From an uncultured Coriobacteriia bacterium (GTDB taxonomy: Bacteria > Actinomycetota > Coriobacteriia > Anaerosomatales > PALSA-660), in assembly GCA_963701985.1 (NCBI GenBank), contig OY969691.1:1672260-1736259 (forward strand): DNA of 64,000 nt, written 5' to 3'. This document shows, piece after piece, positions 1-2,102 of this stretch; position 1 is the first letter of the stretch, and every line of letters starts with the position of its first letter. The notes below the pieces were generated by a model. It ran no database searches, was not told the origin of the DNA, and was given only the letters and a program-made list of their open reading frames with translations. A program made the translations under genes and the position numbers.

Positions 1-2102
1 CGTGACGGTCTCCGTCTACGACGTCGTGATCCCGCCGGAGAAGCAGGGGCTGCTCGACGAGGGCGACAAGAAGGTCGCCGAGATCGAGGACCAGTACGAC
101 CGCGGCCTCATCACCCATGACGAGCGACACCGTCAGATCGTCGACGTCTGGACGGAGACGAACGAGGCGGTCGGTGAGGCGATGGCGCGCAATTTCGACA
201 AGTTCAACCCCGTCTACATGATGGCGTACTCGGGCGCACGCGGGAACATCAAGCAGATCCGCCAGCTGGCCGGCATGCGAGGCCTCATGGCGAACCCGAA
301 GGGCGAGATCCTCGACCGGCCGATCAAGGCGAACTTCCGCGAGGGGCTCTCCGTTCTCGAGTACTTCATCTCGACGCACGGAGCCCGCAAGGGCCTCGCC
401 GACACCGCGCTGCGCACCGCCGACTCCGGCTACCTCACGAGGCGTCTCGTGGACGTCGCTCAGGACGTCATCGTGCGTGAAGCCGACTGCGAGACGGACC
501 AAGGCGTCGCCCTGCCGATCGCCGACGAGCGGGGCGGAGACCGCGTCAACCACAACCTCGTGGGCCGCTGTCTGCTCGTGGACGTGGTCGACGCGAAGAG
601 CGGCGAGGTGCTCAAGGCGGCGGGCGAGTACGTGGACTCCGACGCCGAGATCGAGTCCTGGAAGGAAGCCGGCGTCGAGAGCGTCCAGGTGCGCGCGGTC
701 ATGACCTGTCGCGCGAAGTACGGCGTCTGCCAGAAGTGCTACGGCTGGGACCTGGCATCCAGCCGCCCGGTCGACATCGGCACCGCGGTCGGGATCATCG
801 CCGCGCAGTCGATCGGCGAGCCGGGCACGCAGCTCACGATGCGCACGTTCCACACCGGCGGCGTCGCCGGAGAGGACATCACCCACGGCCTCCCGCGTGT
901 CACCGAGCTGTTCGAGGCCCGCCGGCCGAAAGGCCAGGCGATACTCGCCGAGATCAGCGGGACGCTGCTCGTCGAAGATGCCGAGAAGGTGCGTAAGCTC
1001 GTCGTCCACGGTGAGAACGGCCATGAGAAGAGCTACACCGTCTCGCGCCGTGCGCGGCTGCGTCCCGGCGTGGTCGACGGCGCCGAGGTCGTCGCCGGTC
1101 TGCAGCTGACCGAAGGCTCGGTCAATCCGCACGACCTGCTCCTGCTGCGCGGCGAGACCGACGTGCTCTCCTACATCGTCGCCGAGGTCCAGGACGTCTA
1201 CGCGTCCCAGGGCGTCGACATCAACGACAAGCACATCGAGGTCATCGCGCGACAGATGATGCGCGAAGCTGACCGTGCTGGACGCCGGAGCGACCGACTT
1301 CCTCCCCGGCCAGCTCGCGGACCGGTTCGCGTTCGCCGACGAGAACGAGCGTGTGCTCGCCGAAGGCGGGGAGCCGGCGCCGGCCGAACCGGTGCTGCTG
1401 GGCATCACCAAGGCATCGCTCGCCACCGACAGCTACCTGTCCGCCGCATCGTTCCAGGAGACGACGCGCGTGCTCACCGACGCCGCGATCGCGGGCAAGG
1501 AGGACAACCTCCTCGGCCTCAAGGAGAACGTCATCATCGGGAAGCTCATCCCGGCGGCCACCGGCATGCGGCGCTACCGTGGCGTGCGGCTGACCTACAA
1601 GGGCCAGTCCGCGGAGTGGAGCAGCGAGGAGGCGCGTGGCGCGCTCCCCGACTTCGCGCCGGAGGAGCTCAAGGAGCTCGAGGCGATGCTGCCGTCTCCC
1701 CAGGATCTGATCGAACAGGGTGGGCTCACGCCCGAGCAGGCGACCGCCTTCTTCGAGGGCCTCGACACGTCCAACCTGGAGTTCTTCGACGTCGGCTCGG
1801 TGGTCCCGGTCATCGAGGAGGAAGAGGACGTCGCGGCCGACTTGGTCCTGCCCGAAGAGCGGCCGGCCGACGATCCTGTCGAGGCCACCGACGACGAGGA
1901 CCGCTGCACGGCGATCACCGGCACCGGCATGCGCTGCCGCAACAAGGCGCTCGCCGGCAGCAGGTATTGCCGGACGCACGAGGGCCTTTCCGTCACCGAC
2001 GGGCTGTGCAAGGCCGTCATGAAGAACGGCAAGCCGTGCCCGAAGAAGGCGCGCGAAGGTTCGGACTACTGCGGCCAGCACGCGAAACTCGCCGAGGAAT
2101 AG
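1..2102 (+). CDS. rpoC: RNA polymerase beta' subunit, 5'-truncated, one frameshift near 1262, with extended C-terminal tail
   Basis: Motifs [42 protein letters not shown] and [13 protein letters not shown]...[13 protein letters not shown] across ORFs 2..2260 and 1275..2102. Confidence 0.97.

Follow-up and report, generated by a model that had tools for sequence, protein, structure and literature searches.

Two CCCH zinc-finger-like repeats in place of an αCTD-like domain: the β′ end of RNA polymerase in one Coriobacteriia clade

Results

The end of rpoC and its surroundings

The window, by which we mean the whole 64-kb stretch of Coriobacteriia DNA that was analyzed, begins inside rpoC, the gene for the β′ subunit of RNA polymerase, and runs through the end of that gene to rpsL and, farther on, rpoA. 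The features that matter here are as follows.

2..1264, + strand: middle part of rpoC (β′), frame 2; the gene start lies upstream of the window
1262..1268, + strand: site of the frameshift, where an extra base near 1265 separates codon CGC (R) from AAG (K)
1266..1565, + strand: last canonical part of rpoC, frame 3, with the universal ...IPAxTG end at 1536-1565
1566..1781, + strand: conserved Coriobacteriia-type β′ extension, including ATAFFEGL; coverage by the model NF011498 lasts until its position 1281
1782..1901, + strand: acidic linker of 40 residues, 16 of them D or E, net charge -15
1905..1979, + strand: CCCH finger 1, C-x9-C-x10-C-x2-H, net charge +5
2007..2081, + strand: CCCH finger 2, C-x9-C-x10-C-x2-H, net charge +4
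2100..2102, + strand: rpoC stop codon TAG, reached in a frame unbroken from the IPAxTG end
2131..2168, + strand: terminator-like G+C-rich hairpin, then UUUGUG, just after rpoC (-50.5 kcal/mol, z -3.24)
2261..2289, + strand: promoter-like site ahead of rpsL, reading TTGACA-17-TAGAGT with TG (1 found vs 0.0 expected)
2353..2763, + strand: rpsL (ORF)
20261..21193, + strand: rpoA with its own αCTD (PF03118, E 1.2e-27)

In the list of ORFs with translations, the frame from 2 to 2260 is β′ sequence until the frameshift, and a profile search matched this upstream piece to positions 201-1137 of NF011498 with 1642 bits. The 275-aa piece beyond the shift matched positions 1140-1281 of the same model (E 2.6e-51) and positions 1046-1146 of the 1147 in TIGR02386 (E 3.9e-37). 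Matches to equivalog models and the C-terminal IPAxTG motif at 1536-1565 identify the product as β′. An earlier note on this DNA, made from its letters, had described an ORF at 1275..2102 that continues past the canonical end of β′, through an acidic stretch, into two equally spaced Cys/His repeats at 1905-2081. This ORF is present as described, with no frameshift in its tail, and both the acidic stretch and the repeats were recovered when the ORF was read and all six frames were scanned with a regular expression: C-x9-C-x10-C-x2-H has exactly two matches in the window, both at the end of rpoC, in one frame and 34 residues apart. The β′ of relatives reaches its stop 5 to 8 residues beyond the last His. 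A consensus scan called no canonical terminator after rpoC, missing the hairpin at 2131..2168 because its T run is too short.

Reading frame and assembly quality

The coding sequence of rpoC is split between frame 2, used through 1264 for its 5′ part, and frame 3, used from 1266 on for its 3′ part, and all eight aligned relatives (8/8) read ATGATGCGCAAG... at about 1265, where the window is one base longer. Because the source genome, a single contig, is 51% complete by score and has its nusA spread over three frames, we read the one-base shift as probably a consensus error. Support for the reading frame of the window's own tail comes from relatives; the best of the public sequencing runs contained only 0.26 of sampled words, and the tail is absent from the ESM Atlas.

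Conservation of the fingers among relatives

Both fingers lie in the β′ frame in 14 of the 34 relatives with an rpoC end (source genome included), while the other 20 comprise 2 with one finger, 1 with frame-shifted fingers and 17 with PF03118; finger end and αCTD-like end never occur together in these 34. The β′ frame with both fingers is uninterrupted in 13 relatives besides the source genome, and the complete double-finger frames measure 1427-1466 aa. The double finger was also present at the rpoC end in 29 of 35 named Coriobacteriia/Anaerosomatales contigs, and public protein sets hold many β′ of 1414-1456 aa with a finger tail. The eight Cys/His ligands show no variation in the tails compared (12 of 12), nor do the four ligands in 22 single fingers, and across finger families the ligands are joined in their invariance by Gly and Tyr positions. 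With a within-genus dN/dS of 0.02-0.19, the fingers are under purifying selection, and they genuinely belong to β′, in frame and conserved.

When RpoC C-termini were compared across Coriobacteriia, as the earlier note had proposed, relatives with the double finger kept it in frame with invariant ligands, and the relatives yielded no stop before the fingers, no separate finger gene and no loss of Cys or His, the outcomes it had named as speaking against a fusion. In one relative, G031, the fingers lie in a frame other than that of rpoC, which looks like a frameshift and not a separate gene; the frame upstream of its fingers is nonsense, as expected from a shift inside the linker. Outside this lineage, a phylum-wide sample contained no β′-sized frame with a finger, in keeping with the idea that the module is not a canonical feature of β′.

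Exchange with an αCTD-like domain

Past the universal IPAxTG end, every Coriobacteriia β′ examined has the conserved extension, then about 70-145 residues of acidic and probably flexible tether, then a small terminal domain; none of the β′ ends recovered had lost the terminal domain altogether. Relatives have the extension at 1566..1781 whether their β′ is finger-type or αCTD-type. The median tether measures 108 residues in 28 two-finger β′ (median net charge -18) and 101 residues in αCTD-type β′. The αCTD-like end, 38% identical to the CTD of the window's own RpoA, occurred in 5 of 5 tested genomes of other orders, and NF011498 matched end to end in 67 β′ of other orders. The Coriobacteriia-type β′ of the NF011498/PRK14906 model, which CDD presumably labels as a β′/α-domain fusion, has the same β′, extension and acidic tether as the window, which matches until position 1281 of 1459. 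NF011498-type β′ ends in the PF03118 helix-hairpin-helix domain, whereas the window's β′ has two CCCH fingers there. What had been described as following the canonical β′ end is in fact a replacement for the αCTD-like domain that all other Coriobacteriia β′ examined carry on this tether.

In a tree built on the β′ core, a single clade (SH-aLRT 95) contains 27 of the 28 two-finger β′, and the outgroup, of 6 rows, is αCTD-type throughout. This tree omits three short cores (L020, L062 and L067), 13 exact duplicates (L040-L050, L052 and L053), one sequence from the wrong side (L086) and the source genome, whose core is cut by the frameshift. The ancestral β′ end is an αCTD-like (helix-hairpin-helix) domain, and one environmental Coriobacteriia clade swapped in two fingers. 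No PF03118 match lies in the β′ frame of the source genome, and the single match in that genome is the 310-aa RpoA frame. As rpoA keeps its αCTD, the β′ fingers do not compensate for a lost one.

Family assignment of the finger

The 69-residue end of β′ matched Pfam zf-TRM13_CCCH (PF11722) in two stretches with 28.7 bits (cut-off 20.9, E 1e-6), the best stretch covering only positions 13-28 of the 29 in the profile. NCBIfam HGG_STG (NF041373) also matched in two stretches, with 35.8 bits against a cut-off of 29, over positions 1-29 of 38; the last 9 positions are unmatched and the HGGxSTG motif is absent, each His being followed instead by EGLSV or AKLAE. DUF5763 (PF19067) stayed below its cut-off on the window's tail (23.2 vs 26.3 bits) and is placed on many homologous β′ in public precomputed annotations. 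Also below cut-off were zf-C3Hc3H (25.2 vs 27), zf-primase (19.1 vs 28.8) and plant WRC (PF08879; 20.9 vs 28.6 bits); among Pfam families described as DNA-binding, every match was under the curated cut-off. Of the family models, zf-TRM13_CCCH, DUF5763 and HGG_STG fit the tail best.

The likeness to plant WRC fingers that the earlier note had seen in the spacing holds in part. CX9CX10CX2H is identical in both, but the Pfam WRC match fell below cut-off and the Trp of W-R-C is missing, with MRC in finger 1, KPC in finger 2 and A/T/E-R-C in relatives. The published account of WRC describes C-X7-W-R-C-X10-C-X2-H, with one Zn, Zn-dependent folding and binding to dsDNA (10.1101/2025.01.03.631214). 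Relative to that WRC, the window's unit has equal spacing and differs in its bacterial carrier and tandem arrangement.

By sequence, the finger is a member of the TRM13-CCCH/DUF5763/HGG_STG group, whose CCCH ligand pattern is common to the β′ fingers, and not of plant WRC proper. We take the PF11722 finger to sit at the N-terminus of the TRM13 tRNA methyltransferase; here it is at the C-terminus of β′, and a Pfam search found no TRM13 methyltransferase domain in the tail. A search of the PDB by sequence with one finger profile gave as its best lead the Mcm10 zinc finger, which aligned all four ligands at a nonsignificant E of 0.1, and a second finger profile gave only chance matches (E at least 0.9). 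The finger in the internal domain of Mcm10 (zf-primase PF09329; PDB 3EBE and 3H15) is CCCH like those of β′, but it has one residue more between the second and third Cys and belongs to a eukaryotic replication factor. A faint Pfam match placed finger 2 on positions 126-144 of GcrA (PF07750; 17.7 bits, E 0.005), below the cut-off of 26.9.

The same finger on NusA and bL21

The CCCH finger is also C-terminal on NusA and bL21 of relatives, on NusA across the class and on bL21 in part of the order. Both proteins bind RNA, NusA having S1 and KH domains. By mean identity, finger 1 is closest to NusA fingers (0.58) and finger 2 to bL21 fingers (0.58); since 25 residues are too short for a tree, we claim no donor. 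Other carriers of the finger include a DEAD-box helicase, an mRNA capping enzyme/methyltransferase and GIY-YIG/T5orf172 proteins.

Discussion

Core RNA polymerase is usually viewed as reaching flanking DNA and regulators only through its two αCTDs. In Coriobacteriia, gut genera among them, a third tethered polymerase domain seems to be present, on β′. A literature search, supplements apart, found no relevant publication on finger-tailed β′, an αCTD fusion in Coriobacteriia, the RNA polymerase of Anaerosomatales, DUF5763 or a NusA CCCH finger.

We put a probability of roughly 55% on the explanation that we prefer, in which this is a true β′ C-terminus where two fingers stand in for the αCTD-like end and would let polymerase touch nucleic acid through a tethered, zinc-dependent module. 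The anatomy, the in-frame conservation, the purifying selection, the exchange of domains and the occurrence on NusA and bL21 are observed, whereas zinc binding, the ligand of the fingers and an effect on transcription are predicted. In favor of nucleic acid as the ligand are the company of the finger on NusA, bL21, the helicase, the capping enzyme/methyltransferase and GIY-YIG/T5orf172 proteins, the ligand spacing of the DNA-binding WRC, the Mcm10 lead, and the charges of +5 and +4 beside a -15 linker. Each finger unit would hold one Zn(II), and the pair on its tether would give RNA polymerase a mobile contact to nucleic acid, of weak specificity, directed either at flanking duplex DNA, as αCTD is, or at the emerging transcript, as NusA is, while the acidic tether may mask the basic fingers when they are unengaged. 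The αCTD of RpoA, a known contact for DNA and for activators or factors, is the functional analogy that we propose; it too is a small domain on a flexible linker to core polymerase, but it is of another fold class and on another subunit, and the β′ tether is about five times longer. NusA and bL21 as fellow carriers speak for RNA, whereas the swap with αCTD speaks for DNA. The charge of the module, only modestly positive over 28 two-finger β′ (median +3, range -1 to +7), may count against binding to nucleic acid, as may the sub-cut-off scores of all matches to DNA-binding families and the nonsignificant PDB matches (E >= 0.1). So may the Caulobacter GcrA-SID, whose CCCH finger (C-X14-C-X9-C-X2-H) binds a protein, σ70 region 2, and not nucleic acid, and loses this interaction when its Zn ligands are mutated (PMC5887438).

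Several other readings have to be set against this preferred one. That the fingers are a module for binding protein, contacting either the primary σ, as GcrA does, or a partner that RNA polymerase shares with NusA and the ribosome, strikes us as rather unlikely. Its attraction is that GcrA offers a bacterial example, a CCCH finger that works on RNA polymerase while tethered by a long, flexible linker, with ligand mutants that no longer engage σ70 region 2 (PMC5887438). The faint match of finger 2 to GcrA and the low net charge of the module in many lineages lean the same way. GcrA is, however, a free factor, while the fingers here are part of β′, their spacing is X9/X10/X2 as opposed to X14/X9/X2, and the Pfam match is under cut-off (PMC5887438); no GcrA chain appeared in the PDB profile searches at E <= 10. 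A σ-specific role is hard to reconcile with a finger that is carried by bL21 too and by NusA, whose action follows the release of σ, and the frequent company of nucleic-acid enzymes further argues against protein as the ligand. We hold it similarly doubtful that the fingers are specific for RNA, gripping the nascent transcript, for example of rRNA operons, and working with the NusA and bL21 fingers in antitermination or co-transcriptional ribosome assembly. The C-terminal finger of both these RNA-binding proteins, the DEAD-box helicase and the capping enzyme/methyltransferase among the carriers, and a best Pfam match to the finger of a tRNA methyltransferase would all suit such a role, but the domain that was replaced resembles αCTD, a known contact for DNA and activators, and the look-alike fingers of WRC and Mcm10 bind DNA.

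The remaining two readings fare worse. A neutral or structural appendage, serving for example solubility or zinc buffering, would agree with the apparently harmless exchange or reduction of the end module, which may be two fingers, one finger or an αCTD-like domain, yet it is highly improbable given purifying selection on the fingers (dN/dS 0.02-0.19), the invariance of ligands, Gly and Tyr across families, and the retention of a terminal domain on the tether in all β′ ends recovered. Assembly artefact as the source of the fusion, whereby an indel fused rpoC with a small, originally independent zinc-finger gene or erased the true stop, is rejected on the evidence of in-frame relatives and has next to no chance of being right. 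The assembly is error-prone, with its shift at about 1265, its nusA in three frames and its 51% completeness, and G031 has fingers out of the rpoC frame. Nonetheless, the β′ frame runs without interruption through the fingers in 13 other species and in 29 of the 35 named contigs, which come from many independent assemblies, none of them has a free-standing finger gene beside rpoC, and the nonsense upstream of the G031 fingers fits a shift inside the linker.

More speculatively, and as a long shot, the finger on β′, NusA and bL21 could be a common address tag for one RNA or bridging partner that keeps polymerase and NusA on the transcript together with the ribosome or a nascent large subunit. 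Such a tag would imply lineage-specific transcription-translation coupling or co-transcriptional ribosome assembly, with an older αCTD-like contact of β′ displaced. Returning to the tethered nucleic-acid contact that we favor, should the fingers prove to bind DNA or RNA, the clade would represent a natural experiment in which the grip of polymerase on its template or transcript was rewired. With binding of either kind, a widespread uncharacterized finger, found in 2882 representative proteins at E <= 1e-3, would also acquire its first function.

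A two-finger tail on RNA polymerase β′

The RNA polymerase β′ subunit (rpoC) encoded in the window ends in two zinc-finger-like units with the spacing C-x9-C-x10-C-x2-H, carried behind an acidic linker, which confirms the observation made in an earlier note. The open reading frame described there, 1275..2102, exists and remains open through the tail to its stop. In a translation from 1200, the canonical end motif of β′ lies at 1536-1565 and is followed by 178 further residues. The claim of equal Cys/His spacing in the two units also holds, and a six-frame translation of the whole 64 kb contains this motif exactly twice, both times in the rpoC tail.

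Features of the β′ tail in the window
1782-1901, + strand: acidic linker, 40 residues, 16 of them acidic, net charge -15
1905-1979, + strand: finger 1, net charge +5
2007-2081, + strand: finger 2, net charge +4
2100-2102, + strand: rpoC stop codon, TAG, from translation

Frame and assembly quality

In a break that the earlier note does not mention, the upstream part of rpoC is in frame 2 (2..1264) and the remainder in frame 3. At 1262-1268 the window has ATGATGCGC-G-AAGCTG, one base more than the eight of eight relatives that read ATGATGCGCAAG. The window sits in a single 1.84-Mb contig scored just 51% complete, and nusA of the same genome (G000), outside the window, is spread over three frames (G000:C1:419288-420460; loci L075-L078), with its C-terminal CCCH finger split between two of them. 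We infer that the rpoC shift and the nusA frame breaks are consensus indel errors. Because the assembly is so poor, the frame of the tail needed testing in other genomes, and because the NusA finger is split, β′ was the only place in this genome where our finger profile matched. The β′ model gives three separate matches there, so a further rpoC break probably lies upstream of the window.

Frameshifts inside the β′ tail were also seen in two other few-contig relatives, G024 (L020), where a domain like the C-terminal domain of the α subunit (αCTD) lies in a shifted 117-aa frame, and G031 (L031/L039/L048), where the fingers lie in a 206-aa frame. Second rpoC-like frames in G015 (G015:C24:2908-6663; 1315 aa, aligned to model positions 4-1244 and lacking the long tail) and G026 (G026:C3:203174-203467) could represent a paralogue or a contaminating contig.

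Conservation of the finger-type β′

Among the 40 nearest genomes plus that of the window, the rpoC C-terminus was recovered in 34. Both fingers were in the β′ frame in 14 of these, the window's included (complete frames, 1427-1466 aa), a single finger ended β′ in two (G022, G037), and 17 had none. In the remaining one, G031, both fingers lie directly behind rpoC in another frame and are preceded by nonsense sequence, as expected for a shift inside the linker. Scanning 185,579 species genomes for the pattern gave 35 loci: 29 double fingers ending an rpoC frame, G031, and five bL21 genes. These genomes are labelled Coriobacteriia, Anaerosomatales, Actinomycetes, or Actinobacteria MAGs, along with one Slackia sp. 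MAG, one Eubacteriales MAG, and 'Coriobacteriaceae bacterium EMTCatB1'. Many β′ of 1414-1456 aa with the two-finger tail are present in a set of 5.8 billion proteins, where they bear no more specific name than 'DNA-directed RNA polymerase subunit beta''; for some, the precomputed domains include PF19067 or PF11722.

When 12 tails from four families were aligned, a check the earlier note had proposed, all eight Cys/His residues were invariant and mean column identity was 77%. Within-genus pairs gave a dN/dS of 0.02-0.19 over the finger module, synonymous sites being saturated in more distant pairs. The fusion of the fingers to β′ is real and conserved in frame across relatives, and its lineage specificity holds as well: the phylum-wide sample, in a tally that includes five unpublished genomes, gave a finger match in 92 of 201 genomes and none in a frame of >805 aa.

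Exchange with an αCTD-like end

The fingers had been read as an addition to a canonical β′; instead, they replace an αCTD-like end. In the order's 17 β′ without fingers, the same frame ends in PF03118 (RNA_pol_A_CTD), which scores above its cut-off (a shifted frame in G024), and none of the order's β′ ends examined has both. RpoA retains its own CTD in the order's genomes, including the window's (20261..21193), to which one αCTD-type β′ end is 38% identical. The two types share an extension after IPAxTG, and their acidic tethers have median lengths of 108 (finger-type) versus 101 residues (αCTD-type).

In four families of other Coriobacteriia orders (f27, f29, f31, f32), 67 genomes have a β′ that NCBIfam NF011498 (1459 positions) covers over its full length, and all five other-order genomes tested had PF03118 inside a β′-sized frame. 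CDD labels such proteins a β′/α-domain fusion. Representatives from these families (L080-L083) bear a further strongly acidic tail beyond the αCTD-like domain, with ~150 residues from the domain's start to the protein end.

A quick maximum-likelihood tree of 375 residues of the β′ core, terminal modules excluded, grouped 27 of the 28 two-finger rows into a single clade with SH-aLRT support of 95, and all six outgroup rows were αCTD-type. G035, G031, and the two single-finger rows were unresolved at the base, and row L017 had a very long branch. Most simply read, an αCTD-like end was the ancestral state of the class, and fingers took its place on one or a few occasions.

The same finger on other proteins

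With a profile built from 22 single fingers, the finger-bearing proteins in the order's 41 genomes fell into only three kinds, apart from three odd rows: β′, NusA (~380-560-aa frames with NusA_N, S1, and KH_5 domains), and bL21 (~170-240-aa frames with Ribosomal_L21p, a Lys/Ala/Pro-rich spacer, and then the finger). The bL21 finger, a single C-terminal CCCH unit, occurs in part of the order (L037, L038, L070-L074; database protein P0149), in some cases with AKKPAPKAEKP-like repeats in the spacer. In NusA a short acidic linker precedes one terminal finger (L034, L035, L036, L087, L090), found in the same genus, in other Coriobacteriia orders, and in at least one other Actinomycetota lineage.

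Class-wide, 148 of 151 genomes had a match, and 80 of 83 other-order genomes had exactly one, in frames of 390-460 aa among the matches listed. Class- and phylum-wide matches fall mostly in NusA-sized frames, with Pfam confirmation as NusA for three only; the other-order match checked (G073) and the one checked outside the class (G219) are both NusA.

Globally, the profile matches 2,882 representative proteins (E <= 1e-3), which often have 2-8 copies in tandem, and the best match is named as an algal protein. Among ten long carriers scanned for domains, mRNA-cap methyltransferase domains occur in two (in one of them together with capping-enzyme domains) and GIY-YIG or T5orf172 domains in two more; the others include a DEAD-box helicase, a protein with NHL repeats, and a protein with a UBA domain. 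The last three show no domain beyond finger-family matches, one of these with no match at all. Three to seven tandem copies occur on eukaryotic- or giant-virus-looking proteins (P0001, P0022, P0025, P0074), a set comprising an algal GIY-YIG protein, a DEAD-box helicase, a T5orf172 protein, and a capping enzyme/methyltransferase.

Family assignment and novelty

With the 69-residue C-terminal end of the window's β′ as the query, Pfam zf-TRM13_CCCH (PF11722; 28.7 bits, cut-off 20.9, E 1e-6, two stretches) and NCBIfam HGG_STG (NF041373; 35.8 bits, cut-off 29) scored above threshold. Below it were zf-C3Hc3H (25.2 against 27), DUF5763 (PF19067; 23.2 against 26.3), zf-primase (19.1 against 28.8), and GcrA (17.7 against 26.9). 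The likeness to WRC proposed in the earlier note stands for the spacing, but a WRC score of 20.9 against 28.6 means that the units are not WRC proper.

The finger family is already catalogued (PF11722, PF19067, NF041373), although our searches found no paper on its function, and the term 'DUF5763' was absent from the literature searched. The same literature yielded no description of the two-finger β′, the NusA finger, or the bL21 finger; public protein sets list the first simply as β′. Because the family and the αCTD-ended β′, which an NCBI equivalog model covers, are catalogued and our searches gave no description of the two-finger β′, we rate the latter as lineage-specific domain accretion on RNA polymerase and not as a new kind of system.

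Proposed mechanism and ligand

The β′ C-terminus adjoins ω on the enzyme surface, and a tether of ~110 residues would be long enough to extend to the RNA exit channel or to DNA upstream or downstream. What this tether carries is a small module under selection, with eight invariant ligand residues, that has been evolutionarily interchangeable with an αCTD-like domain and is common to β′ and two RNA-binding components of gene expression. In the most likely reading, each CCCH unit would, by analogy with WRC, bind one Zn; the pair would touch nucleic acid within the tether's reach, and the acidic tether would compete with that contact. In WRC, a finger of the same spacing, folding requires the single bound Zn, and the domain recognizes dsDNA with modest specificity (10.1101/2025.01.03.631214). 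The earlier interpretation of the tail is partly supported, the function of the fingers being a prediction from sequence.

DNA as the ligand is suggested by the αCTD swap and the look-alikes WRC and Mcm10, and RNA by the likeness to TRM13 and by the carriers NusA, bL21, helicase, and capping enzymes. Nucleic-acid contact itself is called into question, however, by sub-threshold scores for every match to families described as DNA-binding, by nonsignificant PDB matches of the finger profiles, and by a median module charge of just +3 in two-finger β′. A protein partner also has a precedent in GcrA, whose CCCH finger targets σ70 region 2, not DNA (PMC5887438). We give little credence to the further idea that polymerase, NusA, and ribosome are physically tied together on one transcript through the finger they have in common.

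Directly 3' of the rpoC stop, the window has a strong G+C-rich hairpin (2131-2168) followed by UUUGUG, and a promoter-like TTGACA-17-TAGAGT lies at 2261-2289, upstream of rpsL.
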